In this document: positions 1 to 37,062 of the stretch, piece by piece
Numbering within the stretch: position 1 is the first letter of the stretch
Layout: every line of letters begins with the position of its first letter
Translations under genes and position numbers: made by a program
Notes under the pieces: generated by a model
Told to the model about the DNA's origin: nothing
What the model saw: only the letters and a program-made list of their open reading frames with translations
Database searches by the model: none
Source of the DNA: Eledone cirrhosa
Lineage: Eukaryota
Direction: 5' to 3'
Assembly: GCA_964016885.1 (NCBI GenBank)
Contig: OZ024740.1
Coordinates: 239,754,001-239,818,000 of the forward strand
DNA: 64,000 bases

Positions 1-3187
<3,187 letters not shown>

Positions 3188-3351: not shown

Positions 3352-3363
3352 CATCTATATTAA

Positions 3364-3409
<46 letters not shown>

Positions 3410-3448
3410 GATATTAATAAATGGAAACTATATTTATAAAACCATATT

Positions 3449-3741: not shown

Positions 3742-3867
3742 AATATGGTTTTATAAATATAGTTTCCATTTATTTATATCGTATTTTTACTCCAAATATT
3801 TGTTGAGTGCTTTATATCAGTTATAAAAATATTTGCTTGTTGTATCCCAATAATTTAAATAGAACTT

Positions 3868-8784: not shown

Positions 8785-8792
<8 letters not shown>

Positions 8793-8944
8793 TAATATAA
8801 CAGATTAAAGTTTAAGCAAAGAATCGCTGCTTTCACCCTTAACGGGATCTTCTGAAACTAACTAAGGTTAGTTTCAGAAGATCCCGTTAAGGGTGAAAGC
8901 AGCGATTCTTTGCTTAAACTTTAATCTGTTATATTAATAAATAT
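8785..8944. repeat. Perfect hairpin: 78 bp arms, 4 nt loop (TAAG)
   Basis: 8785-8862 is the exact reverse complement of 8867-8944; the left end abuts (TA)n. Confidence 0.97.
8870..8920 (+). ncRNA. Hammerhead ribozyme motif, U4A core variant (mirror copy 8809-8859 on -)
   Basis: AGTTT-CAGAAGA-T CCC gttaa GGG T-GAAA-GCA gcgattctt TGC-TT|AAACT. All three stems pair. Confidence 0.7.
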
Positions 8945-10755: not shown

Positions 10756-10871
10756 TATATTATATATATATATGGTGGTAGAACACTGAAGGTAATATCC
10801 GTAGTGGTAGAGCACTCAGTCCATGGGACGAGTTTGGTAGAAGTGGATATACAACAGTTAGTTCACCATAC

Positions 10872-10909
10872 CGAGAACAACTGTTTCACCTTAGCGGATC
10901 CTCAGCTCG
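10872..10909 (-). ncRNA. Minimal hammerhead ribozyme in PLE pLTR
   Basis: CGAG-CTGAGGA-T CC gctaa GG T-GAAA-CAGTTG-TT|CTCG. Confidence 0.75.
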
Positions 10910-11984
10910 TAATGGACATGGTTATACGGAACAGGATGGACAACCGAACGAACACGCATGCGCAGAAACGGTCACTTCCCTCAATACTAAATTGCGTGCG
11001 AGAGGTGTAAGGGAGATAACTGCGAAAGTCCGAAAGTTTCTAGTTGATAAGAAAATTAGGATGTTGTAGTAATTCAATCTGGAACTTTGTAGTTATGTAA
11101 GAGGTGTTTCCAGACGTGTGGACAACGTCTGAAGAATTCGACCTTCAGTTTAGGCAATCGTTATTGCGTAATCTCTTTAGAATATTTATTCGTTCATCAA
11201 TACCTAGTCCACACGACAGATTGCCCGTTGCGTATGGCTTGGACTTAGTGATGGCTTTCCATTGAGTAGAGTAGTCTATACTTGAGTCCGTGAGGGCCCA
11301 TACGTGGCTCGCGAGTTTCGTTTGTCGGGGTACCTAAAGGTCGACTGGTGGTTCAGGAAGCGTTCCTTAAATCGGCCCTCCGCCATACCCACATAGGATT
11401 TGACCTCCTGTGGTTGATTTGGTCGGGTGGAAGTGACCATAGTTTCATAAACTACAGCGGGTATTTGCATTGCTGCTGAAGGGGACAAGCTTCGGGATTA
11501 CGCCAAGAGCACCCTGGTGGGGTGTTGCTCTTAGGGCTGTTGGTGATGTGGGCCTTCATGTTCTTAGCGCAGGAGTATCCTAGTTTTACTTTGTGTTGGT
11601 TAAAGATGGAGCGGTATTTATGACCTATGGTAAAGTGTCTATCTAAGCGGGCTAGACATTTTTTGCCTACATTGATTTTAACGAGTGAGAAGGGAGGAGA
11701 GAACCAGATAGTTTGTCTATAGTTACGCTTTGTTTTCTTATTTCTGTTGTTATTAGTGGGAGAGTAAGTGATAGGTTGCGAGAAGCCGCTGTTAGCTAAC
11801 GCCGTGTTATAGTAGGGTGCTGCTCTGTCAAAGATAGCTTTATTAGAAGAGACGTTTGAGATTCTAGTACTGATATCATTTAAGAAGTTTCTAAAAACAG
11901 TGGGAGGGTGGCATGAGTCCTTGTGAATGTAATTGAGTTTTTCGTTAAGCTTATGGAAGGGTCTGTATGTGTGTGTGCGAAGGT

Positions 11985-12767
11985 CTAATCTAAATTAATG
12001 TCTAAGAAATCTAAGCTAGAGAGGTTGGTTGCTACTGTTATCCTAAGTCCTAACTCATTGAAGGTAGAAGCTAAGTCTTTTTTAAACCGGTCGTGGTTGT
12101 GACCACTTTTATGGCTCGATAAGGTCAGTCCGTCGTCGCGGTATATTCCCGTGTGGAAGTCCGGGAATCTAACACGTAATATGTCTAAAATAAATAGGCC
12201 AACCAAGTCGCATACGTCAGCACTGTCAAATGATCCCATGGAGACGTCGAACAGGTCTGAAGTTGTTGAATTCCTTGCCCTGGCTACTCCGTTGTTGAAG
12301 AGGAGTGTTTTCCGGCAGTGAGCGATGATTTCCCTGTCTAAACCATCGACGGTAGTGTAAGTGGTAGCGAAGTCCAACGCTTTGTTTAACAGGGTCTCTG
12401 AGATCGACGGGTAAAAATCAACAATGTCAAACTGTGTGAACTTCGCTTTTTTGGATTTGAAGGAGTTGAACCACTTAATTACGGAATCGCTGTTCTCCCA
12501 CTGGCACATGTTGGACTTGGTCCTAATGGTCTTAATTATGTTTATAAGTATGGCCTTACTGACTAGTCCCATATCTGTGCGTGTGGCGTTAGAAGTAAAC
12601 TCTACCTTGTGATCTTTCAGGGTGAGGAACGCCTCCCGCTTAGCTAGAGATTGTAGCTTTGTATCTACCTTAAAAGCGGCGGCAAGTTCTTTGGCTTCTG
12701 TATTAATGTCGTAGTAGGACATAGGGTTAGCTTTCTTATATTTGGAAGTAATAGCGTTATGGGCCAA
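11985..12767 (-). pseudogene. PLE reverse transcriptase core (open segment of a disrupted ORF spanning ~11080-13065)
   Basis: 260 aa with AFLTLKDHK, QWENS, FDIVDFYPSI, YRDD and LDFLDINLD; flanking stops and frameshifts. Confidence 0.9.
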
Positions 12768-13667
12768 GTGGCTGTAAGTGGTGTTGTCGACTTCGTAAAT
12801 ATTATTAGTTTTGTCGGAAAGAACGAAAGTATTATTAGAAGACCTAAATTTCTTAATATCATTCCTAAAGTTTAGTTTGAAAGGTGTTAGGGTGTTTACG
12901 AAAGGAAATGTTAGCGACTAAGTAAAGAAGGTCCGCCTCGAAAGGAACAAGTTCAGTTACGTTAGGAGGGTAGGCTCTCGATTTCAGCTTGAAGGTGTTA
13001 CTGGTACCTGTAATTTTGCCGTCAAAAGCTAGGGCTCACCATCTTAAGCGTCTGGCGAATCTTCTGCACCAACAGCCCTAAAAGCAACACCCCACCAGGG
13101 TGCTCTTGCCGTATGCCCGAAGCTTGTCCCCTTCAACAGCAATGCAACACATCCGCTGTAGTTTATGAAGCTGTGGTCACTTCCAACCGACCAAATCAAC
13201 CACAGGAGGTCAAATCCTATGTGGGTATGGCGGAGGGCCGATTTAAGGAACGCTTCCTGAACCACCAGTCGACCTTTAAGTACCCGGACAAACGTTTATC
13301 CACGAAACTCGCGAGCCACGTATGGTCCCTCAAGGACTCAAGTATAGACTACTCTACGTGTGGACTATGTATTGATGAACGAATAAATATTCTAAAGAGA
13401 TTACGCAATAGCGATTGCCTAAACTCAAGGTATGAATTCTTCACACGTTGTCCACACGTCTGGAAACACCTCTTACATAACTACAAAGCTCCGGATTGAA
13501 TTACAACAACATCCTAATTTTCTTATCAACTAGAAACTTTCAGACTTTCGCAGTTATCTCCCTTACACCTCTCGCACGCAACTTAGTATTGCCTGAGGGA
13601 AGTGACCGTTTCTGCGCATGCGCGTTCGTACGGTTGTCCTTCCTGTTCCGTATAACCATGTCCATTA

Positions 13668-13705
13668 CGAGCTGAGGATCCGCTAAGGTGAAACAATTGT
13701 TCTCG
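13668..13705 (+). ncRNA. Minimal hammerhead ribozyme in the inverted pLTR
   Basis: CGAG-CTGAGGA-T CC gctaa GG T-GAAA-CAATTG-TT|CTCG; palindromic stem III ACAATTGT. Confidence 0.8.
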
Positions 13706-13754
13706 GTATGGTGAACTAGCTGTTGTGTAACCACTTCTACTATATATATATTTG

Positions 13755-17260: not shown

Positions 17261-17618
17261 ATTACATAAATACAGTGCTTATATACTATACTATATAGAC
17301 ACAACTTGCATATCGAAAATAGGAAAATAAATCACAAACTATCAGAGCACATTTGTGCTTTACTTCTCATTCAAATTAGCTATAAATATTTATCTACATG
17401 TAATTGATATTCTTACCCCCACCATACCCTTAATTGATGCATTGATAATGCATTAACTATTTATTTGTGCAGTCAAATTTCTACGACTAATATCACACAT
17501 AGCATCATATCACATCTGGATTCAAAGCTTCAATATTGATTTGATTAACTCGAAAATATTATTGTTTTAAAAAAGTATAATATTCAATAAAACTGATATA
17601 TTAATATTTCAATTCCCA

Positions 17619-17680
<62 letters not shown>

Positions 17681-17683
17681 TCT

Positions 17684-17736
<53 letters not shown>

Positions 17737-17827
17737 CACATATATATATATACATATACATGTATACATATATATATATATACATATATATACATACACA
17801 CATACACACACACACACACACATATAT

Positions 17828-17886
<59 letters not shown>

Positions 17887-17976
17887 AGAGTTAAACAAGA
17901 TTCAATGAATACATCAAAGAATGAGTTTTACAATAGTTAGGAAGCACTCTAGAGATATAATTTTCCAGAGTTATTA

Positions 17977-18040
17977 ATATTAATTCAAAATATTAACAAA
18001 ATAGATATTCTTGTGATCAAATATATTTGATTATACATAT
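17977..18040 (-). repeat. 64 bp inverted copy of the pLTR end 23894-23957 (3' half of hammerhead plus downstream)
   Basis: Reverse complement atatgtataatcaaatatatttgatcacaagaatatctattttgttaatattttgaattaatat matches 23894-23957 at 63/64. Confidence 0.95.
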
Positions 18041-19113
18041 CTGCCACTGTGGTCTTAGTTTGTTTGTCCGTTCGAGTCATGGGAAGATGGCTGCCGCCAT
18101 CCAGGTCTATTGCACCGGGGATGGGCTCGATGCTCTCATAGTTTGCTTGGATGATTAGCTCCATCCCCGACTCTGTCCAATTCTCCTGTTTTATTCGCAT
18201 GACGTCGAGTATAGTTGTTGATTCCTCAACGTCAGCGAGGATGACCGCCGTCAACCACGTGATCTCCACTGAGAGCAGAACCTGGGTTCCTCGAACCCTC
18301 ACCACTCTCTGGCCGCAGTATGTGGGCATCATTATTATTTCGTCACTGTGGAGTGGCGCAATGGAGTGTTCTCTGGCTTCTTCCCGTGTAGCGAAGAGTA
18401 CATCGACAGTGTCACACCTCGATCCCCGGTCTATGTATGTTTTCTGTGCCCAGGCGGCACCCATAGCTCTTTGGACCTGTGACTCCGTTGCTCGTTCGAC
18501 TCGGCGCGATTTTAATCCTATTGTGCGATAATTGACCGAACACAAAAGGTTGTTTTTCATTATATTAGCTGGGAGGGTGAGACTTACCCTGTGTCCGGTC
18601 TTTTTAACCAAGATCTTGGCTTGTTTTATCCCCTCATTGGTTTTTCTGGCTTTAACGAAAAATGCGTTGTGTTGTGATCTGCTGTGCTGACTCATCGCTA
18701 GTGTTGCCTTTGTTGCTGTTGTTGTTGTTGTTGGTGGGTTTTTTTTCTTCTTGTGTTGCTGCTGTTACAGTTGTTGTTCTCTGGGTTCTTTATGGCTGTT
18801 GCTGCTGTTATTGTTGTTGTTGGGCTGGCGGTGGTGTCTGATCTTTCTAATAATGTGAAATTTTTTTCGTAGATTGCACTGCTGCTGCTACTGTTCCAGT
18901 GGTTGCTGTTGCTGTTATCACCACCACTGCCACTGTCGCTGCTGCTGTTTCTGTTGTTTTTGCCTTTGCCTTGTGATTGGACGGAATCCTTTGGAAGAGG
19001 GGTTTTCTAACTACACACTAATGTAAAAATTACTATATAAAACTTTCGATAAATTCATAAAATTTAACTCACTTACTCCGTCGTAGTTACAACCGTCTCG
19101 AGAGATTCAGCAC
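18040..19113 (-). mobile_element. Duplicated 5' part (5'UTR + partial ORF1) of the Tx1-type LINE at 31486
   Basis: ORF 17985-18695 is nearly identical to 32057-32712 and has TGG where the donor has TAG (32573). It lacks ~155 bp corresponding to ~31613-31767. Confidence 0.92.
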
Positions 19114-19447
19114 ATAATAATAATAATAATTGTTTCTACTTTAGGCACAAGGCCAGCAATTACCCAGTACGTTACTGGTACTTTATTTTATCGACCCTGT
19201 AAGGATGAAAGGCAAAGTTAACCTTGGCGGCATTTGAACTCAGACCATATAACAATGGTTTTTTATATAGGCACAAGGCCAGCAATTTTGGGGGAAGGGA
19301 AAGTAGATTAAATCGACCCCAGTACATTACTGGTGCTTTATTTTATCGACCCCGTAAGGATGAAAGGCAAAGTTAACCTCGGCGGATTTGAACTCAGAAC
19401 GTAAAGTGCCATAACTCTATGCTGCAAATCATGGTGTCTGACGCTCT
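19114..19447 (-). mobile_element. Two tandem 5'-truncated SINEs (mirror of 31154-31485)
   Basis: Two copies of the gagttcaaat..gccgaggttaactttgcctttcatccttac.gggtcgataaaataaag core, flanked by (AAT)n. Confidence 0.88.
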
Positions 19448-19464
19448 AATAATAATAATAATAA

Positions 19465-20330
19465 TTTCTTTATTTTCCACGCTGGGCTCACTTTAAGAAA
19501 ACATTGTGGACGGCACATAACGGATATAGTGTTGGTTTTGGGATGTAAAACGTTTTTAACCTAACAAGGAAAACCTAAAAATTCAAACAAATAAATTCCC
19601 CAATAGGAGGACTTCCAAGGGTCACACATAGAGAAAGCACACAAAAAGCCACGGTTACTCTAACCATTAGGTCAAGTGACCTCTCCTTGTTGTTCTCCCC
19701 CAGTCTACAGGTACACACCCAGAGCAAGCCTCTTCACTCGGGTCATGGTAGCCTCTCTCACCTTACAACATACTTTCCCTTTTCACTCTGATTTACCTTT
19801 TCAAGAGAAACATGAAACAGTTGATCTTCTCTTCGCCGAAGTGGATTGTACTTGTCTTCAACCCTTTCAGACTTCTCCATCATACCACCCATTTCGCCAT
19901 GACTACTAGCTAAAGGAGGCTGGCGAGACAATCTTCGCGATGGTCTCAGCTGATATCTGGATCCGTGCAGGTGTTCAACACATACTCACAAGTCATGTGC
20001 ACATATCAGATAGACCCGGTTGACGGCACTTCCATGCCTTTAGAATTTATTTCGAATGGCAATACTCCTTGGTAGCAAGAATAGGCTAAATATTTCTGGA
20101 AGTTATCCATGGGCCATGGACTAAAAGTTATCCGGAAAAAATTGGTTAGGTGATTATCGTTGACGCCCAGAGTCTCCCCAAGAACATTGTCGATTTTACC
20201 CTCCTCCTCACCCTCTTTAGAACACCAATGTGGAGTCTCCATTGATCGATTGGCAGAGGGCTGTGAACACTTGAAGACATTCCAGTCTCCAAGTGCTACA
20301 TCTCGGTCGTCGCTTGACCCAGGATTGTAG
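19465..20330 (-). mobile_element. 3' fragment of a Tx1-type LINE (mirror of 30240-31136)
   Basis: LQSWVKRRPRCSTWRLECLQV, DNVLGETLGV and PMDNFQK match ORF2 of the element at ~36060-36800. Confidence 0.88.
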
Positions 20331-20719
20331 CATTTTTGTCCGTTCCTTTGTCTTTAGACTGGATTGCCTCAGAAACGTAAGCATAATGATGTTGTCTGAT
20401 GAGATTGCGTGACAGGTTACGTGATTGAACAATCACGTATCCACGATCCTCATTGAAATATGTGTCACAGCTTTGATAATAAAGGTCTCTTTAACATCTA
20501 CACTGAACATCGCATTTTCCTTATTCTACATATACTCCATCACCGACTTACAAATCATATTTGGAAGGAAAAACATGACGTTGAGTGCTTGAATCAAATT
20601 GCATCATTATTTACTGGTGGTGCGTTGCATACCGCAACCCCGTTTAGTCAAAATTTTTACCGTAAGTATGTATATATATATATATATATATATATAGATA
20701 AATATACACGGGTGTGTAT

Positions 20720-22200
20720 GATTGTGTATAGAAGATTATATTAATAAAAGGAATTCTAACTTTGTCTGATTTACTCGTTTTATTTACAATCCTTTAAAAT
20801 TTATAATGGTATTAGAATGAAATAGTATGGTAGAATATTAAATGTTAAATATTAATTGAACAAGTACTTTCATGCTTTCGCAATCTTCAGGTTCATATTC
20901 TGTGTTGACAGTCAAGTTTGTAATTTTCAACTGTAATGTGATGGGTAAATTTTGTGCCTTCTCTACAGTGAAAAGTGGCTATAGAATGCTAAATCTTGCA
21001 AACTGTATTTCGACCAATCGGTGTGTAGTTTCATTGGATTACTAAAGTTGATTGGTTTAGGCGTCACGGTTGGTTGAGCATGTCTAACGACTACTATTTG
21101 ACCCTGTCCAAAGCATCAATTGTTTTGCTATTTTTAGAAATGATGAAAATAGCATTTTCTAGTAATCATCACCATCAACATCACTTTTATTATTATTATT
21201 GTTGTTGTTGTTGTTGTTAGTGGTCGTAGTCATAGTCATAGTAGGAGTAATACCCCTAAGCATTATTATTGTTCATTTACCTTGGGTTGGAATTTATCAA
21301 TAAAATTCTTTTCTTGGATTTTTCTCTTGATTTCACTTGGGCTGTGTAATTTGTAGAATGGAAATATTATAAATATTCTCTGACCACATGTTGCTATATG
21401 GTTACTCAGGGATATCTGACGGACAGTTGGGTCTCTTATTTGCTGTCCGTGTACCCGTACACGTTCCGATAGTGTATTTCCTGTTTGACAGACATATAGT
21501 TCTTCACAATTCGGGTATTTAATGCAGTAAATTAGATTTCTGCTTTTGCAGTTCATATTTGCATTTGGGAATATTTTTCCAGTTTTTGTTGTCATATATT
21601 GACCAGTGTGTATTGATTGACATGTGCCACATCGACTATTATTGCATTTAGATATAGTGAATGATTGGTCTTTGTTGTTAAGGTCAAACTTTGCTTTTGT
21701 TAGTAATTGCTTCAAATTTTTCGGTTGTCTTTTACTAAGAATCAAAGATCGATCTGTGATTAAGCCTTTTAATTCATTACTTTCAGCAATGATCGGTAGG
21801 TTTGCTTTGGCAGTGTTAAAGATATTCTGGTGACATGGATTGTGTGTCATTATAAATGGTATGACCAGTTCTTGGTTTCTTCTTCCTTGGGTTGTCCTAA
21901 GTTGTTGTATAGGTATTTTTATAGCCCGCTGTATGCCATTTTCTATAAGTAGAGATGGGTATTTTTGTTTGAGCAAAAATTCTCTTAGTTCTGTTAGGCG
22001 TTTGTTCCTGGTTTTCGTATCTTCTACAATGGTACAAATTCTTCTGGCTTGGCACTGTGGGATGTTGCGTTTTGTAAGAGGTGGATGGCACGACTTAAAA
22101 TTCAGATAATGATGGGTGTCAGTGTGTTTATAATATATATCCGTGGTAATGGTGGTGTCGTTTTTTATTACCATTATATCTAGGAATGGTAATTTGGTAC
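20720..22200 (-). mobile_element. 5'-truncated Penelope-like element (Neptune-like Cys linker) with pLTR
   Basis: 313 aa ORF 21266-22207: LPFLDI, YYKHTDTHHYLNFKSCHP, KCNNSRCGTC, NLIYCI...YVCQTG..ER, PKVN. Hammerhead in the 3' region. Confidence 0.92.
20857..20895 (-). ncRNA. Minimal type I hammerhead ribozyme
   Basis: TGAAC-CTGAAGA-T TGC gaaa GCA T-GAAA-GTAC-TT|GTTCA; GNRA loop and palindromic stem III AGTACT. Confidence 0.9.
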
Positions 22201-22316
22201 TACTCATATATGCATATATGCGTGTGTGTCTTTGTGTATGATGTGTGTGAGTATGTATGAGAGAGAGAGAGAGACTGGGAGAAAGAGAGGGAGAGAACGA
22301 GAGAGAGAGAAAGAGC

Positions 22317-22467
<151 letters not shown>

Positions 22468-23404
22468 CGCGCGTGTATCTATGCTTCCATTGTTGTTGTT
22501 GAGTACTTTATCTCTTTCTCTCAAAATTAATTTTAGTGCTTTGTTCATATTCTGCTGTTTACATTATTTTTTTCTGCTTGTGTTCATAAAATGGCGTGTT
22601 TTAGTGGATGGTGGTCAATCTGTTTACATTAATATCTTTTCTCCTGTAACAAGCCATCATACAGCTCCTCCATATTCAGCCATCATTTACAATGATCAAA
22701 TAAACAATATATTGTTTTAATAAAACTGCTGTACTTTCTGTAATAAAATACTTGAAAGTGTGCTCACATGGTTGACTTATATATTTTTTACTGTTTTGTT
22801 ATGGAAAAGAGGGCAGCGTTCAAGCTATTTTATTTTCAGTCCCGACACCCAGCCGACTGGTGGAGTAATGACTACCACTCAAAAATTCAGAATGCAAAGA
22901 ACCTGAACAGATGCTATAAGGCAAGTCGTCCAATGATCCGACGATTCCGTCAACCTACCACTCTGAACGGGTGCTTTATTTGATCGAACTTGAATGAATA
23001 AACAGCAAAGTCGACTTCAGCAGGATTTGAACTAAGGTTGCAGAGAGTTGTAAATAGATCAGATCACTTTTTTCTTTCAATTCTGCCAAATCACCGCCTT
23101 AATTTAACCAAAGAGAAAGTTATTATATTTAACCTCAAATGCTTCAGTATTACAATACATCAAGTTTATCTACCTGAAAAATGGCAGCAATTTCTGCTCT
23201 TTGTATTAAATAACTGTGCCTGTGCTGCAATAACACTCAGTGAGTATGGTTTTTTCTGGTTGTCCAGTTATGGCAAGCACAAGGAAACGCACAGCAAAGG
23301 AAATACTTAATTTTAGTTGATTAAATTTAATTTTTCCTTCTTATTGATATAACTAGTAATTCTAACACGATTGATACTTTCCCAGAGGATAATCTAGTAA
23401 TCTT

Positions 23405-24089
<685 letters not shown>

Positions 24090-24599
24090 CATTTAAAATA
24101 TTAATATAATCAGTTTTATTGAATATTATACTTTTTTAATACAATCGATATTAATTATGTATATTGATTATATATAAAATAAACATTGATATATGACTTT
24201 AAGATTAATCCTCAAGTTCATAGTAATATCACACACTAGCAGATACAAACATAATCAGTATTTGACTCTAGTACACATCATAAATAACCATATTAGCAAG
24301 ATTCTTTACTCTTGATTTAAAATATTCTTCAATTAATTGCTGATTCACTATAATATTACCAAAAGCTATTCCATTAAGAAAACAAAAACGTAATTAATGC
24401 ACAGTGATATCCTCCTTTGCACATAACGAGATCTTACGTTAATAACGTCGGCCATCTTTGTTTGGAGCTGCCTGAATGATAGCGTCGTGTGTATCTGCGA
24501 AACTCACAATTTAGTATACATACAGCGTTTGAAATCGGAGGTAGCAGTTTTTGTGTTGAAGACATTAACCATATCATTTTAGCTCTGTTCTTCCCATAG

Positions 24600-26280
24600 A
24601 GCACTCTCTTCCCTTTATCTGTTTAATAGAACCTTCCATCACTAATCATAGAGTTCCCGACGGCGAAGGATTTTGCACCAAGATTATCATCCTTTAGCCC
24701 GGCAAGTTGAACACTCTAAAAAATACAAGGGTATAAATGAACACAAGAAGGGAGTTATATAAGATTGACTATTCTACAAAGATCATACCAAAACAACTTA
24801 CAGCAAATTGTTGACAGAAAAAAGAGAAAATGTGGTGCGCAGACCGAGAAGAAATATGCTACTCTTCGACGGAGAGATAGCTACCAGTACCACTGACTAA
24901 TTTTATATCAAACCAAGACTATTTCCACCTAGAGTTAGAGAACTAGCACCATTTGAAACGAAATTATGACATCTAATAATTAATATAAAATTCCGTGAGT
25001 ACCATAGTAATTTCCAAACTAAACTTTCACATGATCTCAACAAATTTAAATCTGCTAAAATACTTTTGTCTTCTCAGATAAAACAAAAAAACTTATACGA
25101 AGTAGATACAGATAAATCTAACCAACCATTGCTTAATGATATCACTAATACATACAAAAAGCTGAACTTACCACCTATAAAATATTAATAATGGTTTCTT
25201 TATCGGCCACAAGGGATATATATATATATATATATTAATAATGAAATAGATAATATAATTAGAAATAGATAAAGCTTAGCCAAACGTAGTGCTTTTATCG
25301 CTTTGAAACACATAAAAATTACTTTAATAATAGGCCTAGTTCTAGATGAATAAACACAACTTAAACCGATATAAGACTAGCCAGTAAGAAGATCCTAAAA
25401 AAAAGATCAACTATTACAGTGGATTTACATCTTCAATGATATCTTGGTCTAAGAATATCCGTGATAAAAATAACGTTCACTCAATTTCACATCATGGACT
25501 TCTACCCCTCTATTTGCCATGCACTTTTAGATAGAGCTTTTCACTTTGCTCAAGGATTAGGCCTGATTAATGACCAGGAATTAGATGTAATTATGCACGC
25601 TAGAAAAAGATCAACGCCACAAAACCCTTTTGGTGCCTCGATGTGGTCGTATGACAACACAGACACCATTGATTTGGTTGGATTATTTATCCTCTGTACC
25701 ATCAAGGAGAAATTTCCAGAGCATGCCATTGGCCTACACCGTGACGATGGCCCGGCAGTCTCCCATAATACCAACTGCCATTCCTTAGATAAGTTCCGTA
25801 AGGATCCATAACAGAACTTTAAAGATTAGACCTCCACCTAACCGCAGATACTAACTTAAGTAACGCAAATTGTTTAGATGTAAATTTAGATTTAGCATTT
25901 ACCTACAGACCCTACCATAAGCCTAATGAAAAATTCAGATATATCAACAGAGGGTCATGTCACTCATTGAAGTATTTAAAAATCTGCATTAGTTGTAGGA
26001 TCTCGACTTTATCTTCCCCTAAATAAATATCCAATAAAGAGGCCCCATATTACAATAAAGCTCTTAGTGATTTCAAGGAGAAGAATAAAGCTTCTTAGTG
26101 GTTTCAAGGAGAAGAATACATATATGTCAAATAGTAACAACCATAACAGAAATAGAAAGATAATCTGGTTATCATCAACCTACTCCATAACAGTAAAGAC
26201 CAACGTAGGTAGCAAATTCCTACAGCTAATAGATTAATACTTCCCACCTTGCCATATGTATAATAAGATATTTAACATAC
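24600..26280 (+). mobile_element. Heavily decayed Penelope-like element (same RT group as 11985-12767), 3' part missing
   Basis: FTQFHIMDFYPSI, DLVGLFIL and GLHRDDG in ORF 25461-25811; flanks show RPYHKPNEK and APYYNKAL-like remnants. Confidence 0.8.
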
Positions 26281-26339
26281 AGTCGGTGAGAGTTAGCTAC
26301 TCTTCCGTCTCGTCGATAAGGTCGAATATAAGCGCAAAA

Positions 26340-26790
26340 CGAACACCGGAGGACAACTCAGAATGCTCTTGTAGGAAAAATGCAGCAAAAATGCAATGCT
26401 GCATGTCAGTAAAACAAGGGCAGTGACTGCAGAAAACATGCGTAGACTGGAGAGAAATGAAACATCCATGCTCTGTTGGATGTGCAACGTAAATGTGAGA
26501 GAACGGCAGAGCTTAGATGAACTGATGGATAAAATTGTGTTTATGGGGAATCCGAGGTGGTACGGACATGTGATGCGCATGGATGATGACCGATGGGCGA
26601 AGAATTTCCAGGAAATGGCAGTGGAAGGAAGCCGCGAAAGAAATGGACAGAAATGGTGAAAGCTGATCTCAGATCACTGAGACTCACTGACGAGATGACG
26701 AAGAAACGCGGTGAGTAGAGAGATGCTATGCTGAGAAGGACCCGTCCAACCCATTCAAGCGTGGAAGAACGGACGTAAAAACGACGATAA
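26340..26790 (+). mobile_element. 3' fragment of an RTE-type LINE
   Basis: MRRLERNETSMLCWMC...RWYGHVMRMDDDRW...VEGSR; short gacgataatgacg tail. Confidence 0.8.
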
Positions 26791-28404
26791 TGACGAGAAT
26801 ATATATATGTATATATATATATATGTGGGTGTGTGTGTGTGCGTGTGTGTATGTATGCATGTCTCTATGTATGTATGTACTGTGTGTGTTTGAGTGTCCC
26901 CACAATCTAGTGATTTATAAGATACGACTTCAATGCAAAATGCGATACGAGTTACATAAATCAAGTAGAATGAAGGTCTTTCATAAATATGCTTTTTAAA
27001 AAGGTTGAAATACTGGTCTATTTATCATAGTATTATTTTACAAATCTCCTATAAATCATATCTTAATCTTAAGTAAAGCTGACATTAAATAACGTATATT
27101 TAGATAGCCCTAAAAGAATGTGGTGGTTGCAGTTGGAATCCGGTTTTTATACCGGGGATAAACAACAGCTACTTTCTTGTGCATGTTAATAACATTTACT
27201 AAATTACCTCACTGGACTTACTGCCGCAAGGGAAATTATCAATATCGATATTGATGAATTTGATGTGCATTAATAAGATTACTAGATTATCCTCTGGGAA
27301 AGTATCAATAGTGTTAGAATTACTAGTTATATCAATAAGAAGGAAAAATTAAATTTAATCAACTAAAATTAAGTATTTCCTTTGCTGTGCGTTTCATTGT
27401 GCTTGCCATAACTGGACAACCAGAAAAGGCCATACTCACTGAGTGTTATTGCAGCACAAGCACAGTTATTTAATACAAAGAGCAGAAAAAATATCTAAAA
27501 TTGCTGCCAGTTTTCAGGTAGATAAACTCGATATAATGTAATACTGAAGCATTTGAGGTTAAATAGAATAACCTTCTCTTTGGTTAAATTAAGGCGGCAA
27601 ATTGGCAGAATTGCAAGAAAAAAAGCGATCTGATCTGTATACAACTCACTGCAACCTTAGTTCAAATCCTGCTGAAGTCGACTTTGCTGTTTGTTCATTC
27701 AAGTTCGATCAAATAAAGCACCCGTTCAGAGTGGTAAGTTGACGGAATCGTCGGATCATTGGACGACTTGCCTTATGGCATCTGTTCAGGTTCTTTGCAT
27801 TCTGAATTTTTGAGTGGTAGTCATTACTCCACCAGTCGGCTGGGTGTCGGGACTGAAAATAAAATAGCTTGAACGCTGCCCTCTTTTCCATAACAAAACA
27901 GTAAAAAATATATAAGTCAACCATGTGAGCACACTTTCAAGTATTTTATTACAGAAAGTACAGCAGTTTTATTAAAACAATATATTGTTTATTTGATCAT
28001 TGTAAATGATGGCTGAATATGGAGGAGCTGTATGATGGCTTGTTACAGGAGAAAAGATATTAATGTAAACAGATTGACCACCATCCACTAAAACACGCCA
28101 TTTTATGAACACAAGCAGAAAAAATAATGTAAACAGCAGAATATGAACAAAGCACTAAAATTAAGTTTGAGAGAAAAAGATAAAGTACCCAACAACAACA
28201 ATGGAAGCATACATACACGCGCGCACGCACACACACACACAGACACACACACACTCGCTCTTTCTCTCTCTCCCGTTCTCTCCCTCTCTCTCTCTCTCCT
28301 GTTATCTCCCCCTCTCTCTCTCTCTCCCGTTCTCTCCCTCTCTCTCTCTCTCATACATACTCACACACATCATACACAAACACACACACGCATATATGCA
28401 TATA

Positions 28405-29860
28405 TGAGTAGTACCAAATTACCATTCCTAGATATAATGGTAATAAAAAACGACACCACCATTACCACGGATACATATTATAAACACACAGACACCCATC
28501 ATTATCTGAATTTTAAGTCGTGCCTCCACCTCATACAAAACGTAACATCCCACAGTGCCAAGCCAGAAGAATTTGTACCATTGTAGAAGATACGAAAACC
28601 AGGAACAAACGCCTAACAGAACTAAGAGAATTTTTGCTCAAACAAAAATACCCATCTCTACTTATAGAAAATGGCATACAGCGGGCTATAAAAATACCTA
28701 TGCAACAACTTAGGACAACCCAAGGAAGAAGAAACCAAGAATGACACACAATCCATGTCACCAGAATATCTTCAACACTGCCAAAGCAAACCTACCGATC
28801 ATTGCTCAAAGTAATGAATTAAAAGGCTTAATCACAGATCGATCTTTGACTCTTAGTAAAAGACAACCGAAAAATTTGAAGCAATTACTAACAAAAGCAA
28901 AGTTTGACCTTAACAACAAAGACCAATCATTCACTGTATCTAAATGCAATGATAGCCGATGTGGCACTGGTCAATATATGACAACAAAAACTGGAAAAAT
29001 ATTCCCAAATGCAAATATGAACTGCAAAAGCAGAAATCTAATTTACTGCATTAAATGCCCGAATTGTGAAGAACTATATGTCCGTCAAACTGGAAATGCA
29101 CTATCGGAACGTGCACGGGTACACCGACAGCAAATCAGAGACCCAAATGTTCGTCAGATATCCCTGAGTAACCATCTAGCAACATGTGGTCAGAGAATAT
29201 TTATAATATTTCCATTCTACAAATTACACAGCCCAAGTGAAATCAAGAGAAAAATCAAAGAAAAGAATTTTATTGATAAATTCCAACCCAAGGTAAATGA
29301 ACAATAATAATGATTAGGGGTATTACTCCTACTATGACTATGACTACGACCACTAACAACAACAACAACAATAATAATAATAAAAGTGATGTTGATGGTG
29401 ATGATTACTAGAAAATGCTATTTTCATCATTTCTAAAAATAGCAAAACAATTGGTGCTTTGGACAGGGTCAATTAGTGGTCGTTAGACATGCTCAACCAA
29501 ACGTGACGTCTAAACCATTCAGCTTTAGTAATCCAATGAAACTACACACCGATTGGTCGAAATACAGTTTGCAAGATTTAGCATTCTGTAGCCACTTTTC
29601 ACAGTATATAAGGCACAAAATTTCCGCATCTCGTTACAGTTGAAAATTACAAACTTGACTGTCACCACAGAATATGAACCTGAAGATTGCGAAAGCATGA
29701 AAGTACTTGTTCAATTAATACTTAACATTTAATATTCTACCATACTATTTCATTCTAATACCATAATAAATTTTAAAGGATTGTAAATAAAACGAGTAAA
29801 TCAGACAAAGTTAGTATTCATTTTATTAATATAATCTTCTATACACAATCATACACACCC
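28405..29860 (+). mobile_element. Penelope-like element 3' part (donor copy of 20720-22200), frameshifted
   Basis: ORFs 28143-28586, 28520-28744 and 28741-29307 reproduce the 313 aa RT-thumb/GIY-YIG peptide with small deletions. Confidence 0.92.
29675..29713 (+). ncRNA. Minimal type I hammerhead ribozyme
   Basis: TGAAC-CTGAAGA-TTGCGAAAGCAT-GAAA-GTAC-TT|GTTCA, identical to 20857-20895. Confidence 0.9.
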
Positions 29861-29865
29861 GTGTA

Positions 29866-29903
<38 letters not shown>

Positions 29904-30239
29904 CTTACGGTAAAAATTTTGACTAAACGGGGTTGCGGTATGCAACGCACCAACCAGTAAATAATGATGCAATTTGATTCAAGCACTCAACGTCATGTTT
30001 TTCCTTCCAAATATGATTTGTAAGTCGTTGATGGAGTATATGTAGAATAAGGAGAATGCGATGTTCAGTGTAGATGTTAAAGAGACCTTTATTATCAAAG
30101 CTGTGACACATATTTCAGTGAGGATCGTGGATACGTGATTGTTGAATCACGTAACCTGTCACGCAATCTCATCAGACAACATCATTATGCTTACGTTTCT
30201 GAGGCAATCCAGTCTAAAGACAAGGGAACGGACAAAAAT

Positions 30240-31136
30240 GCTACAATCCTGGGTCAAGCGAAGACCGAGATGTAGCACTTGGAGACTGGAATGTCTTCAA
30301 GTGTTCACAGCCCTCTGCCAATCGATCAATGGAGACTCCACATTGGTGTTCTAAAGAGGGTTAGGAGGAGGGTAAAATCGACAATGTTCTTGGGGAGACT
30401 CTGGGCGTCAACGATAATCACCTAACCAATTTTTTCCGGATAACCTTTAGTCCATGGCCCATGGATAACTGCCAGAAATATCTAGCCTATCCTTGCTACC
30501 AAGGAGTATTGCCATTCGAAATAAATTCTAAAGGCATGGAAGTGCCGTCAACCGGGTCTATCTGATATGTGCACATGACTTGTGAGTATGTGTTGAACAC
30601 CTGCTGTCACGTATGGCACGGATCCAGCTATCAGCTCAGACCATCGCGAAGATTGTCTCGCCAGCCTCCTTTAGCTAGTAGTCATGGCGAAAGAGGTGGT
30701 ATGATGGAGACGTCTGAAAGGGTGGAAGACAAGTACAATCCACTTCGGCGAAGACAAGATCAACTGTTTCATGTTTCTCTTGAAAAGGTAAATCAGGGTG
30801 AAGAGGGAAATACTGCCTTCTACAAAGTATGTTGTAAGGTGAGAGAGACTACCATGACCCGAGTGAAGAGGCTTGCTCTGGGTGTGTACCTGTAGACTGG
30901 GGAAGGACAACAGGGAGAGGTCACTTGACCTAATGGTTAGAGTAACCGTAGCTTTTTGTGTGCTTTCTCTATGTGTGACCCTCGGAAGTCCTCCTATTGG
31001 GGAATTTATTTCTTTGAATTTTTTACGTTTTCCTTGTTAGGTTAAAAACGTTTTACATCCCAAAACCAACACTATATCCGTCATGTGCCGTCCACAATGT
31101 TTTCTTAAAGTGAGCCCAGCATGGCAAATAAAGAAA
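30240..31136 (+). mobile_element. 3' fragment of a Tx1-type LINE ending aataaagaa + (ATT)n
   Basis: Homologous to ~36062-36930; stops and deletions. Confidence 0.88.
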
Positions 31137-31153
31137 TTATTATTATTATTATT

Positions 31154-31485
31154 AGAGCGTCAGACACCATGATTTGCAGTTAGAGTTATGGCACTTTACG
31201 TTCTGAGTTCAAATCCGCCGAGGTTAACTTTGCCTTTCATCCTTACGGGGTCGATAAAATAAAGCACCAGTAATGCACTAGAGTCGATTTAATCGACTTT
31301 CCCTTCCCCCAAAATTGCTGGCCTTGTGCCTATATAAGAAACCATTGTTATATCGTCTGAGTTCAAATGCGCCAAGGTTAACTTTGCCTTTCATCCTTAC
31401 AGGGTCGATAAAATAAAGTACCAGTAACGTACTGGGCAATTGCTGGCCTTGTGCCTAAAGTAGAAACAATTATTATTATTATTAT
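31154..31485 (+). mobile_element. Two tandem 5'-truncated tRNA-derived SINEs with (ATT)n tail
   Basis: B-box gagttcaaat, Nin-like gcctttcatccttacggggtcgataaaataaag, 3' gctggccttgtgcct. Confidence 0.88.
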
Positions 31486-31705
31486 GTGCTGAATCTCTCG
31501 AGACGGTTGTAACTACGACGGAGTAAGTCAGTTAAATTTTATGAATTTATCGAAAGTTTTATATAGTAATTATTACATTAGTGTGTAGTTAGAAAACCCC
31601 TCTTCCAAAGGAGGTGTTTTTTTTTAACTATATCTCTCGTCCTTAAGGGCTGAATTTGTATTTATTTACAATCGTACCCTTCAAATTTTTGTTTAAAAAA
31701 AAAAC

Positions 31706-32887
31706 ATGGCGGACGAAAAAATTGTCCACGGGAGGAACAGCGGGTTGTTCGGAGGGTAGAACAGCCGATTCCGTCCAATCACAAGGCAAAGGCAAAAACA
31801 ACAGAAACAGCAGCAGCGACAGTGGCAGTGGTGGTGATAACAGAAACAGCAACCACTGGAACAGTAGCAGCAGCCATGCAACCTACGAAAATAATTTCCC
31901 ATTATTAGAAAGATCAGATACCACCGCTAGCCCAACAACAACAATAACAGCAGCAACAGCCATAAAGAACCCAGAGAACAACAACTGTAACAGCAGCAAC
32001 ACAAGAAGAAAAAAAAAACACCAACAACAACAACAGCAACAAAGGCAACACTAGCGATGAGTCAGCACAGCAGATCACAACACAACGCATTTTTCGTTAA
32101 AGCCAGAAAAACCAATGAGGGGATAAAACAAGCCAAGATCTTGGTTAAAAAGACCGGACACAGGGTAAGTCTCACCCTCCCAGCTAATATAATGAAAAAC
32201 AAGCTTTTGTGTTCGTTCAATTATCGCACAATAGGATTAAAATCGCGCCGAGTCGAACGAGCAACGGAGTCACAGGTCCAAAGAGCTATGGGTGCCGCCT
32301 GGGCACAGAAAACATACATAGACCGGGGATCGAGGTGTGATACTGTCGATGTACTCTTCGCTACACCGGAAGAAGCCAGAGAACACTCCATTGCGCCACT
32401 CCACAGTGACGAAATAATAATGATGCCCACATACTGCGGCCAGAGAGTGGTGAGGGTTCGAGGAACCCAGGTTCTGCTCTCAGTGGAGATCACGTGGTTG
32501 ACGGCGGTCATCCTCGCTGACGTTGAGGAATCAACAACTATACTCGACGTCATGCGAATAAAACAGGAGAATTAGACAGAGTCGGGGATGGAGCTAATCA
32601 TCCAAGCAAACTATGAGAGCATCGAGCCCATCCCCGATTCAATAGACCTGGATGGCGGCAGCCATCTACCCATGACTCGAACGGACAAACAAACTAAGAC
32701 CACAGTGGCAGAAGAAAAATCACTATCTCCAACAAAAAAAGCACCATCTCTTCCCCCCTCAACAGAACCAACGGAGAGCATGCTCCTTTCCGAAATTGCT
32801 AAATCGGACAAGAAGTGCGATGAGGCCGAAGGATGGCAAACAATCCCAGCAAAAAAGAGGAAGAAAGAAACCCAAAAAAGAAAATGA
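31706..32887 (+). pseudogene. Tx1-type ORF1 (low-complexity N-terminus, conserved central domain), disrupted
   Basis: RRVERATESQVQRAMG, RGSRCDTVDVLFATPEEA and PTYCGQRVVRV are homologous to the ORF1s at ~52660 and ~62023. Stops at 32052 and 32573; zinc knuckle absent. Confidence 0.8.
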
Positions 32888-33437
32888 AAACGAACCCACC
32901 TTCTCCACCACCATCAACAGCCACACCCCCACAACCACCTTCAGCATCACCACCACCACCACCACCACCACCACCACCACCACTACCACCACCATCACCA
33001 CCACTATTAGCATCTGCCCCATCGTCACCTCCAACAACACCACAGCAAACACAGTAAGCACCAACACCCCAACAGCAGACACAATACACAGCCATAGACA
33101 CAGACAACACAAACCTTTTAAATTACATTCAACACCACACCAACATCACAGAAACAAACTACGGACAAACCACCAAAATTGCACCTTCCACACACATAAA
33201 AATAATAGAAATCACCCCCAAAAAATTACATGACATTAAAAAAAAATGTTCCCCACATCAATTGGAGACTAACTGGGGAACATTACTAAAAAAATATTCA
33301 AAGACATTCTCGTGGAGAAACCCGCCACTGGTCGGAGGGTTCGATCACCCACCTCTTTCCTAAAAAAGAGCCACAGGGAAATCTTTTTTTTATTTTACTT
33401 TTCCCCTCACACTTGTTTTCCTCCTATCATAGCCAAC

Positions 33438-36400
33438 ATGGCTTCCATCAGGATAGGTAGTATAAATGCACGTGGCCTGGGGTCATCTTGGAAGCAGGGC
33501 CACATGCTTAACGATCTCAGGTCGCTAAACATAGATGTGGTGACCATCAGCGAGACCAGAATCTCCGAGGCAAGGTAATTCTCACCCATTTTCGGCGGCT
33601 ACGAGGTGTACACAGCTCGAAGCCGTCTCAGATCTGGGGAGTGGGGTGGGGTGGCTGTGTTGTTCCAGAGAAGTGTGGATCTCGAGACACAGGCCGTCTT
33701 CTTGGACCCATAAGGTAAGTTGGTGGTGCTGGACGTGACCAGCTGAGAAGGCAAGCTTTCAGACTAGTGGCCGTCTATGCTCCAACAGGAGCAGGACGGC
33801 CTGACTTCTTCCGGCGTCTGGAGACCTTACTTGGAATGTCCCGCCCTTTAGTGTTAGTGGGCGACTGGAACGGGATCTTAGATGCACGCTGGGACTGTGT
33901 GGGATTAGCAGATAGGAGAGGAGGGTGTAAAAGACTTGCAAACCTGCTCAGACGGTTTCAACTGTCTGACAGGTACCGTCTTGATTTCCCGAATGTGCCA
34001 ATGTGGACTTACACAAACCGCATCGCGTCATCAAGATGATATCTAGATAGAGTATTTTGTAGGGAAATAGATAGGTCTAGCATAGGCTGTTCACAATTCA
34101 AGATAGTCGTCTACACGGACCACAAATTAGAGATCTGTGAGGTTGACTTAGATAGGCTTCATAAACGAGGACCCAGCTACTGGAAGCAAAAGGCGTCGTT
34201 AACAGTGCGCAAGACCTACAGAGACCGGATTAGCGAACTAGTTAAGCGGGCGTTGACGGGCGCCATCGTCAACAACAAGTGGTGTTTTGCTCTGAAAAGA
34301 GCGATTAGAATAGAGTCCATTAGGTTTAGAAGGCGTTAGCAATAGAGAAAAATAGAACGGAGTGAGAACTAGTTAGGAAATTAGACCAAGCGATTAGTAA
34401 AGGCACCTCGACCGACGTACTTGCGGCGAAATTGGCCCTTGACCAATTCTTCAACGCAAAGCACGAGGCTGCGTTGTCAGAGCTAGGGTGCGTGCTCTCG
34501 GACACGAGGGGACGAAAGCCGTTCAGTGGACCCGAGTGGCGGAGGCGCGTCGTGGCAACAAAGCCACGATCCGGTCTTTGGTCGACTACGACGGGCGCAT
34601 GCTATTCGATCCCGGGAAAATGTGTGAAACTTTTCAGCGACACTTCACTCAGGTGTTCGGGGGCAGCGGCGGGCCGGGTAGAGGGATGGACGTTAGTGTC
34701 TACCTCGACGGACTGCCGCGGCTCTCGGCCACTGAGGCGGAGTGTTGTGAAAAGCCGATAACAGCCGCTGAAGTACGGGAGACAATGACCGGCTGCACAA
34801 GGGGTAAATCGCCTGGTTTGGATGGTCTGCCCTATGAACTTTACTTACAGATGCCAGACTTGTTCGGAGGCCTCTTGGCGGACGTCTACTGCAACTGGCA
34901 ACAGAACGGGAGAATTCCCAGCTCTGTGAGCCGAGGAACGGTGGCGCTACTGAGAAACACAGAGTTCAAGATTTTGGCCAAGGTGCTAGCAAATAGGTTG
35001 GCGCTTGTCGTTGGTGGTCTGGTGGGAGAGGCGCAGCCATGCGCCATTCCCGACAGATCCATCCACGACAACCTCCACCTCATGCGATACATCGTAGAGA
35101 GGGTAGCTAGAGAACCTGGCACGGGTGGGTCCTTGATCAATTTAGATCAGTGAAAGCTTTCGATAGGGTCGACCATCGTTACCTAGCGGCAGTCCTGAGG
35201 GCGGCTGGCTTTGGGTCCGTCTTCAGAGGCTGGATTTCTGCCATGCAGAGCGACATCTGCTCTGTGGTGAGAATGAACGGTCAATTTTCGGAACCATTCA
35301 ACATCATGCGCTCGGTCCGCCAAGGATGTCACTTCTCGTCCCTCTTGTACGTATTGACTCTCGAGCCATTACTGCACAAACTGGAGACGTTGAGGGGGTT
35401 CCCGCGCGAACTAGGATGCGGAAGATCCATGTCAGCATATGCGTACGATGTCACCGTAGTGGTGTCGAACGCCAAAAAGATCGAGGCGATCGGCACTACA
35501 CTAAGAGAATACGAAGCGGTGACAGGAGCAATGATCAACAAGGAAAAGTCAGTGGGCCTGCAGCTCGGCACCTGCAGAGGCAGGTCCATGCCGTCCAACA
35601 GCGTCCTCGGGCACTGGATGGACGGACCAGTCAAATTGCTAGGGGGTCTGGTTCGGTCCGGCCCTCCAGACGGACAAAAACTAGGACGAGGTGACGAGCA
35701 GGGTGGCTTCTCTCACCCAGAAATGGACGGAGAGGAAGCTATCCCTGAAAGGTCGAGCGGAGGTGGCTAACGCTTACATCGCGTCCGTCATCTACTACCG
35801 CCTGACTGTCGTATCTTGTCCTAAGCCCCGCCTGACTGCGCTGGAGCGTTTGCTCTTTCGCTTTTTGTGGAAGGGACGCGCTCCGATGGTCAGGCGGTCC
35901 ATCTGCTGTCAACACCCGCTACGTGGAGGGCTGGGCAAGCCGTGGCTGATGATGCGCAGACACGCCCTCAGGCTACGACATCTCCACCTCTTCCTCGACG
36001 GTGATCAGGTGTGGTCGCCGTTTGCTAGACACGTTTTTCCCCAGCTCGTCTCCTTGACGGAGCTGCAGTCCTGGGTCAAGCAAAGACCGAGAGGGAGCGC
36101 TTGGAGACTGGAATGTCTTCAGGTGCTCACAGCCCTCGACCAATCGGGCAATGTGATCGGGGGAAACTCCACCTTGGCGTTCTATAGGGGATTAGTGGAG
36201 GGGAAGAGCGACGATGTACTTGGAGAAACTCTAGGCGTCGACGAAAATCAACTAGCCAATCTCTTCGGAAGGACTTTCGGGCCGGGGCCTATGGACAACT
36301 TCCAGAAATCCCTGGCCTGGCAGTGCTACCGAGGAGCTTTGCCAGTTCGGGATAAACTCTACAGGCATGGAGGTGCCGTCAGCCGAGCATGTCTGAGATG

Positions 36401-36807
36401 CGCACAGGGCGACGAAACCGTCCTGCACGCACTCGTCCAGTGTCCGAGCATTGCTGACTTGTGGGTTTATGTCGAACACCTGCTGTCACGTGTAGGACGG
36501 ATCCGGCTATCAGCTGAGTCCAATCGTGAGGATTGCCCCGCCCTCCTCCTTTAGCCGGGAAGGGCAGGCAGTTTTTATCTGTCTGGTGGCCATGGCGAAA
36601 GAGATAATATGGTGGACACGTTTGAAAGGGCTGAAGACAAGCACTTACCTCTTCGGTGATGCCCTGATTAACTTTTTCAAATTTCATTTGAAAAGGAAAA
36701 TCAGGGTAGAGAGGGAAGTGCTCTTTTCCCAGCATTTTGTTGAAAGATGGGTGAGAGAGGCAAGAATGGCCCGAGTGAATAGGCCTACTCTGAGTATGTG
36801 TCTGTAA
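33438..36807 (+). pseudogene. Tx1-type ORF2: AP endonuclease + reverse transcriptase + Cys/His tail, multiple stops and frameshifts
   Basis: SINARGL, ISET, VYAP, GDWN, TDH; GKSPGLDGLP, LDQ*KAFDRVDH, SVRQGC, YAYD (YADD mutated), CLRC..ETVLH...C. Confidence 0.92.
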
Positions 36808-37062
36808 ATTAAAGGTGGAAAACTGGGAGAGGGCACTTGCCCTGGTGATCAGGGTCACTGTGGCCTTTTAATGGCTTTTCTCCACAAATGCCCCTCGGAA
36901 GTCTCCCCCCTATTGGGGAATTTTTCATTGTTATTTTTTTGTTACATCCTCTGTTTTTGTTTTTTACACGCAGAAATGCCCATTTGTACCGTCCTGTATT
37001 GTACTGTACTGTTCTTAATGTCTACTTTATGTAAACCCTTGTGGTTAATAAAGAAAGCATTG

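Follow-up and report, generated by a model that had tools for sequence, protein, structure and literature searches.

An inverted 5.4-kb copy of neighbouring DNA enclosed by a head-to-head Penelope-like insertion in Eledone cirrhosa

Structure of the composite locus

In a 64,000-nt stretch of the Eledone cirrhosa genome (assembly GCA_964016885.1, contig OZ024740.1, positions 239,754,001 to 239,818,000 of the forward strand; hereafter the window, numbered from its first nucleotide), a 5.4-kb duplicate of local DNA lies in reversed orientation between two back-to-back ends of a Penelope-like element (PLE), with its donor 3.3 kb away. Self-comparison of the window revealed that 18040–23404 is an inverted copy of 27275–32712, and the duplicate begins and ends where the two arms of one standard Penelope-like insertion have their inner 5′ ends, in agreement with the initial annotation, which had described an inverted pseudo-long terminal repeat (pLTR) layout with local DNA as filler. 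The composite structure is real, and the right-hand segment is the donor, which stayed in place. It is probable that a (TA)n-targeting PLE inserted head to head at this site and that an unjoined cDNA end copied the nearby chromosome during integration.

The left arm of the insertion is 157 bp long (17884–18040, minus strand) and consists of a 93-bp stretch (17884–17976) facing outward to the (TA)n and 64 bp of pLTR end (17977–18040), the 5′ end of which is located 8 nt upstream of a predicted ribozyme cleavage site. The 93-bp stretch continues the pLTR end in other copies as well (for example, in loci L005, L007, and L008) and is therefore the tail of the element; it had been missed when the left flank was first described as a 64-bp pLTR copy, a match that in itself holds. 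The captured copy (18040–23404, minus strand) overlaps this arm by 1 nt and contains the 5′ part of a Tx1-like element, short interspersed nuclear elements (SINEs), a piece of an older long interspersed nuclear element, the 3′ end of another PLE, microsatellites, and unique DNA, and no host gene was identified in this cargo. When 10 natural reference copies of the element were aligned, 5361 bp of the window joint remained uncovered. The right arm (23402–23957, plus strand) is a tail-less 3′ end of the same element, so the insertion has a tail on the left only; other copies extend at least 1.5 kb further upstream of 23402, indicating that this arm is a 5′ truncation. The two arms match each other in inverted orientation at 63 of 64 positions (17977–18040 versus 23894–23957), and (TA)n tracts lie outside both, with a (CT)n/(CA)n/(TA)n microsatellite as the left half of the target site (17620–17883, pure (TA)n at 17831–17882) and a (TA)n tract as the right half (23954–24088). 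The inverted match, the 1-nt overlap at 18040, its 8-nt offset, and the flanking (TA)n had all been noted initially and were confirmed.

The donor segment (27275–32712, plus strand) runs on unbroken into its neighbours at both ends. On the right, it passes into a broken Tx1/L1-like non-LTR element (approximately 31490–37000, plus strand), of which the 5′ part was copied. Its only Pfam match is zf-RVT, its reverse transcriptase (RT) piece matches R2 and L1 ORF2 structures in a PDB search, and the Tx1 label is that of the initial annotation. A perfect 18-bp palindrome (27238–27255) is located 20 bp beyond the left breakpoint of the donor.

The element family and its usual insertion product

Both ends of the window insertion belong to one high-copy Penelope-like family with Hydra-clade motifs. 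Genome searches returned 2407 candidates for 23405–23958 (best matches 92–95%) and 2070 for 17884–18040, and a 42-nt end pattern matched exactly 1428 times, against no match for the control. A tandem pair at locus L061 (C3:174981500–174991400) provided a full-length unit of 4001 bp, the two units being 99.2% identical, and the unit at L093 is 4.36 kb long. In the 4-kb unit at these two loci, RT motifs are followed by those of a C-terminal GIY-YIG nuclease (YRDD near 1070, NYIG at about 1890–1920); a search of the RT piece returned nothing in Pfam and nothing useful in PDB, and the GIY-YIG piece had no match in Pfam. Among 12 natural copies scanned, most of which are truncated earlier, RWR (with R in place of K) is present in L061 and L093, SDKT, with DKT in place of DKG, in L061, L093, and L133, and a CxCX5C linker of the CNCRNKPDC type in seven; C..C..E and CLH/CFH motifs, corresponding to the clade's CxxC and CxH at the conserved E and N, are also present in family copies, and the CCHH motif of the nuclease is absent, as judged by eye on the alignment. 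The Hydra-clade motifs are listed in section 11 of PMC8557442, where the elements are given as generally shorter than 3 kb. The unit of 4.0–4.4 kb exceeds this norm, and the excess is 3′ non-coding sequence. Apart from its greater length, the element thus appears to be a Hydra-clade-like PLE, as judged from the matching motifs.

The usual insertion product was examined in three sets of loci, namely 80 stretches around the first 100 listed matches of the 42-nt pattern (all on contig C1 and ordered by position, with the two matches of the window and the last one omitted), 48 loci obtained with the window ends as queries, and 75 further non-redundant loci (15 of 90 were dropped as repeats). Closed two-ended insertions were found in 52/80, 25/48, and 46/75 of these, giving 123 of 203; in these 123 rows, one insertion is counted as a pair and one triplicated locus accounts for three rows. 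The usual layout is (TA)n, inverted 3′ end, direct 3′ end, and (TA)n, with (TA)n abutting the outer ends in most of the position-ordered loci. A tail is present on one end only in 85 of 92 distinct short joints, and the gaps at short joints range from a 9-nt overlap to a 58-nt insert. About a third of the position-ordered loci (28/80) were open within the fetched stretch. The arm lengths of the window insertion are within the normal range of the family, and its two arms share a rare allele that is carried by six of 192 other arms, indicating that both arms came from one source. One joint of L106 has a 92-bp tandem array made of a pLTR piece, and L122–L124 represent one insertion found three times in a segmental triplication.

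Junctions and the hammerhead-like motif

The right junction of the duplicate has a 3-nt microhomology (23402–23404) within about 11 nt of imperfect likeness, and the overlaps of 1 nt and 3 nt at the two junctions fit those at other joints of the family. The right arm contains a minimal type I hammerhead-like motif (23844–23910, plus strand; core 23852–23858 and 23891–23894), with predicted cleavage after 23902. The initial annotation called this hammerhead intact. Its core does match the consensus, and stem I and stem II are present, making it a candidate motif; beyond the motif, the Rfam scan gave no hammerhead family among 87 matches at E ≤ 1, and the fold was non-significant, with a z-score of −1.58 and 10 of 200 shuffles equally good. 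A second minimal hammerhead-like motif, also with a non-significant fold, lies in the duplicated segment at the 3′ end of another PLE (29680–29702, plus strand, in the donor; 20868–20890, minus strand, in the copy).

The idea that the hammerhead placed the junction was rejected, as none of 184 arm ends, and none of the 90 in the position-ordered set alone, lie within 5 nt of the predicted cleavage site. Part of the 184-end sample came from queries with the tail end of some 160 bp, a length that selects against tailed arms that are very short. Six of the 184 ends fall in the position class of the window, and 90 form a cluster some 100 nt upstream of the predicted cleavage site (corresponding to about 23785–23805 in the window), with peaks at two positions. 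The hammerhead-like motif is a passenger of the pLTR and does not set the junction. The upstream cluster may show where the template RNA starts within the pLTR, which would explain the many head-to-head insertions of 250–450 bp. Uncleaved RNA is reported as the main substrate of a PLE (PMC11167929), and the left arm of the window, which runs 8 nt past the predicted cleavage site, is in line with this report.

Divergence, direction of copying, and age

Global alignment of the copy with the donor, with a microsatellite masked, yielded 131 substitutions in 5087 columns (2.58%) and 16 private indels, eight with bases absent from the copy (up to 156 bp) and eight with bases absent from the donor. 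The inverted duplication recorded initially is thereby substantiated, and the 16 private indels speak against an assembly artefact. The unique part of the duplicate (22500–23404) has two near-identical places in the 3.0-Gb assembly of 1796 contigs, which are the copy and the donor themselves; a third copy was not found among the 40 of 439 candidates that were scored, and a mobile composite unit was therefore rejected.

The direction of copying is given by related repeats. Relatives of the Tx1-like element continue past 32712 in the same way as the window in all six printed alignments (13 were aligned) and keep the 156 bp absent from the copy, and old-repeat relatives at L203/L204 and L207 cross 27275 by at least 44 bp. 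Because relatives read across both ends of 27275–32712, this segment is the donor. The same donor had been proposed at the outset on the ground that it continues into an intact Tx1; the continuation past 32712 is correct, but the element is not intact, with ORF1 and ORF2 broken into many stop-bounded pieces. In the Tx1-like part, 81 changes in 1046 columns are common to both segments and hence precede the copying. Subsequent changes comprise 12 derived in the donor, seven derived in the copy, and one unclear (p = 0.36), a symmetry suggesting that the copying was not grossly error-prone. The 81 shared changes, the nested SINEs and microsatellites, and the lack of poly(A) show that genomic DNA already in decay served as the template. 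A longer reading frame (21266–22204) survives in the copy than in the donor, which has deletions of 18 and 19 bp.

The initial annotation had proposed comparing the divergence of the duplicate with that of the 64-bp repeat; a comparison with the paired arms of other copies gave closely similar values. In 50 other two-ended rows, the two arms differ from each other at 205 of 8427 positions (2.43%), against 2.58% for the duplicate (Fisher p = 0.61), so the duplication has the age of the family. It may have formed during integration or soon after, two timings that the agreement of ages in one genome does not separate.

Support for the assembly

Three public sequencing runs of one sample held 0.41–0.62 of the sampled words in a run search and were mapped onto 17885–22240, a region including the left junction only; the following figures are from the 24 of 187,135 pieces listed. 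A 148-nt contig of run X1 covers 18012–18159 across 18040 with one difference, and a contig of run X3 likewise starts at 18012 and crosses 18040, so junction contigs are present in two of the three runs. On the element side, the junction contig extends 29 nt, below the tool threshold of 31 nt. The runs span, with no differences, a deletion at 19773 that only the copy has, donor-type contigs are also present, and the RAD-seq run X4 has 29 reads in the left-junction region. Of the two junctions that the initial annotation proposed to confirm with long reads or PCR, 18040 is seen in contigs of the public runs. At 18029, the sole mismatch of the 64-bp repeat, run contigs and reads show the common base of the family; the base in the assembly does not belong to the main alleles of the runs and may be haplotype-specific or an assembly error.

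Origin of the duplicate

The layout suggests that the element nuclease would cut both strands in the (TA)n and that both DNA ends would prime reverse transcription, one at the tail end and the other at an internal site that omits the tail. For a lizard PLE, two reverse-transcription start sites and two-strand cutting and extension were reported in vitro (PMC11167929), and the one-tailed head-to-head layout fits this behaviour. The two cDNA ends normally join directly or via a patch of a few bases, which is the usual product of the family. In the window, one cDNA end would instead have annealed to the chromosome at 27275, from where a host repair polymerase would have copied 5.4 kb up to 32712. 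The right cDNA end is the more likely invader, given the 3-nt match within the longer likeness at 23402–23404. The new strand would then have been released and joined to the left cDNA through the single nucleotide observed at 18040. Capture during PLE integration had also been the initial interpretation; the layout, the shared allele, the family-like age (2.58 versus 2.43%), and the reported occurrence of such templated insertions in L1 (10.1101/2024.08.27.596794) speak for it, while the order and timing of the template use, including the invasion itself, are what we infer from the layout, donor, junctions, and age.

Several observations weigh against this reading. Long captured filler was found in none of the 123 other closed loci, and a local donor at the junction in none of the 21 open loci extended by 8–20 kb; longer or more distant captures could hide among the rest of the 80 open loci. 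The window is thus the only long case, and its 5.4 kb and its distance of 3.3 kb far exceed the values of L1 templated insertions, which are typically shorter than 250 bp and within 15 bp of the site (10.1101/2024.08.27.596794). In the one genome available, no empty or filler-less allele was seen. In 708 columns, the element ends in the window have 14 changes that are rare or private (2.0%), compared with 9.1 expected on the assumption that they are exactly as old as the duplicate (Poisson p = 0.08), an excess that leans weakly to an insertion older than the duplicate. Divergence along the duplicated arms is uneven (0.6–5.5%, p = 0.0008), and gene conversion may therefore make the duplicate look younger. 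In addition, about 55 bp on either side of the same (TA)n form a separate local inverted match, which had been missed initially. Its halves, X (17555–17613, plus strand) and X′ (24093–24152, minus strand), match over 53 bp at 94% by BLAST and adjoin the outer edges of both microsatellites, and their 27-nt core has only two occurrences in the genome, both here, even with one mismatch allowed. This match points to another local inverted event at the site and keeps alive the possibility of a later repair.

X′ has the (TA)n on one side and, from about 24180, the 5′ end of an older PLE family on the other. The proposal that X and X′ are the ends of that older PLE (24180–26300) was unsupported, as none of 11 relatives match 24093–24145; an older templated patch, placed where the 5′ end of this PLE lies, is a possible origin. 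The older element itself (24180–26340) is broken, has related RT motifs and relatives that are 70–80% identical, and lies directly to the right of the target (TA)n.

The main rival explanation, which we consider rather unlikely, is that an ordinary head-to-head insertion came first and that a break later arose in or close to its centre, which is prone to form hairpins, and was mended with a copy of adjacent DNA, the PLE machinery playing no part. Inverted arms and (TA)n tracts are prone to breakage. The divergence of the element ends is a little above that expected from the duplicate (14 versus 9.1 in 708 columns, p = 0.08), the divergence of the duplicated arms is uneven, X and X′ form another local inverted match at the same site, and insertions into arms are common in the family (SINEs and other repeats in L006, L086, L104, L108, and L134), all of which would suit such a repair. 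However, the filler sits exactly between the opposed arms, unlike nested repeats, which lie inside one arm, both arm lengths are normal for the family, and the age matches that of family insertions (p = 0.61). It is improbable that the PLE reverse transcriptase jumped to a nascent unspliced RNA across 27275–32712, a route proposed for intron-retaining PLE gene copies. Host genes that contain introns and lie between pLTRs are reported in a rotifer (PMC3846280), such a transcript would be local, and the copy covers the 5′ part of the Tx1-like element, which may hold a promoter. Yet the copy ends on neither side at a poly(A), splice, or element boundary, its 156-bp deletion has a 2-nt overlap and misses the nearest GT-AG by several bases, and the Tx1-like copy was already decayed.

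Ligation of a broken 5.4-kb fragment of the sister chromatid or homologue between cDNA-tailed ends, or the merging of two insertions by rearrangement, is very improbable. L1 cDNA ends are reported to join pre-existing breaks (10.1101/2024.08.27.596794, 10.1101/2024.12.14.628481), the 1-nt overlap at 18040 fits end joining, and 28 of the 80 position-ordered loci were open in the fetched stretch; two extra nearby breaks would nevertheless be needed, and the rare allele common to both arms, like the single tail, indicates one insertion. An assembly artefact, in which two haplotypes of one locus were joined in reverse through PLE repeats, is hardly credible. The read check covered the left junction alone, with 29 nt on the element side, and the run sample may be the source of the assembly itself; even so, contigs of two of the three public runs cross 18040, the copy-only deletion is spanned, donor-type contigs are present, the two segments differ by 16 private indels, and the junctions form the exact layout of the family. 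Capture of neighbouring DNA by an unjoined cDNA end thus remains the reading that we favour.

Frequency of long captures

Including the window, a long capture is present in one of 124 closed loci, with a 95% upper bound of 4.4%. That such capture is a frequent route to segmental duplication finds no support in the other 123 closed loci, and as a source of duplication, long PLE capture looks minor so far. The larger gaps elsewhere are nested repeats, iterations of microsatellites or tandem units, or stretches that lie between distinct insertions (L068). Seemingly local duplicates at L086, L025, L104, and L137 were rejected as dispersed repeats that also occur in other loci, L115 is a short element with long inverted ends, the fillers of L081 and L118 are tandem iterations, and that of L022 is (TA)n. 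Of ten short fillers searched for a source nearby, L290 alone had one. Its 36-nt filler (L290:1759–1794) matches its own flank (about 2660–2695, 0.7 kb outside) at 29 of 31 nt in direct orientation, and the exact 21-nt core occurs in none of 328 other loci. L290 is a possible miniature capture and as such speaks for the favoured reading, although the low complexity of its match counts against this.

Eleven single-ended copies (L067, L074, L096, L140, L141, L221, L238, L254, L281, L263, and L268) have no partner end in about 7–19 kb of inner DNA. These copies may mark junctions of deletions or rearrangements, or captures of greater length. For L067 and L074, a genome-wide search with the DNA beside the open ends found no further near-identical copy.

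Relation to known systems

Inverted arms and one-sided tails are standard for PLEs (PMC8557442). Inverted-pLTR insertions of EN+ PLEs of the Hydra clade (Craig et al., 2021, PMC8557442; Frangieh et al., 2024, PMC11167929) resemble the window in the RT with C-terminal GIY-YIG, the RW[KR], DKT, and CxCX5C motifs, the hammerhead motif in the pLTR (a candidate one in the window), the (TA)n target, the inverted 5′-truncated arm, and the tail on one end only. They differ in their reported tail of 30–40 bp (93 bp here) and unit of generally <3 kb (4.0–4.4 kb here), and the joint of the window holds 5.4 kb of host DNA.

Among human L1 elements, Zumalave et al. (10.1101/2024.08.27.596794) reported 22 instances of templated insertion, with 3,598 solo insertions in the same figure. 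In templated insertion and twin priming of L1, as in the window, nearby non-element DNA is copied into the insertion and so duplicated while the donor stays, two cDNA ends join by microcomplementarity, and the event is rare. L1 belongs to another class of retroelement, and the two arms of the window insertion copy the same element end, not two parts of one RNA. The window duplicate is about 20 times the typical upper size, its donor is 3.3 kb rather than 15 bp from the site, and it is inherited and old, whereas the L1 cases are somatic. Local inversions and inverted duplications at L1 insertions (10.1101/2024.12.14.628481) likewise show that open break ends yield local inverted duplicates; these are ascribed to self-annealing of the genomic flank beside the cut. 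In the window, the flanks stay on the (TA)n, the duplicate lies between two cDNA arms, and the 3.3 kb up to the donor are uncopied.

In the rotifer Adineta vaga, a single insertion holds host DNA flanked by terminal repeats of Penelope (Arkhipova et al., 2013; PMC3846280). That cargo lies between direct pLTRs with a target-site duplication and was read as mobilized in trans to a new locus. In contrast, the window has inverted ends, an adjacent donor, and no third copy of the unique part among the 40 of 439 candidates that were scored; the adjacent donor and inverted ends favour a DNA template. In the literature searched, mostly open-access, no report was found of a PLE head-to-head joint with a kilobase copy of adjacent DNA, and the available portions of 10.64898/2026.07.22.740005, PMC9977147, and PMC13282606 contained nothing on capture. 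Templated insertion (L1) and pLTR-bracketed capture (rotifer Penelope) are thus already known, and a long local capture in a PLE head-to-head joint is new.

The completion of PLE integration, the formation of inverted ends, and intron-containing cargo are presented as open questions in PMC8557442, PMC11167929, and PMC3846280. A doubtful but far-reaching proposal is that PLEs integrate via an open two-ended break whose free cDNA ends can invade the chromosome and copy kilobases, that such DNA-templated capture, rather than unspliced RNA, explains the intron-retaining host genes framed by pLTRs, and that abundant (TA)n-targeting PLEs are a standing source of kilobase-scale local duplications. 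The window structure is well explained as a rare product of an ordinary element, by a process known from human L1 elements and unusually long here. In the window, the surviving donor 3.3 kb away, the readable junctions, and the family-matched age point to a DNA template and render the question testable, and the family offers at least 1428 exact end matches for a survey of captures.

Other features of the window

Further head-to-head structures next to (TA)n are present at 3407–3783, 8785–8944, and 10775–13740, and hammerhead-like cores at 3685, 10445, 10884, and 13672. The segment 11452–13499 encodes PLE pieces with the same linker motif as the family. A 1.4-kb inverted repeat (−179..1199 and 1984–3367) was rejected as a local duplication; it represents a young high-copy element with 98–99% identical matches among 3139 candidates, often arranged as inverted pairs and also found in a tandem array at 83.68 Mb of contig C1. 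Two long minisatellite arrays are located at 40630–42750 (periods 42/84 bp) and 44164–46362 (period 25 bp), of which the former is open in two frames for about 700 codons.

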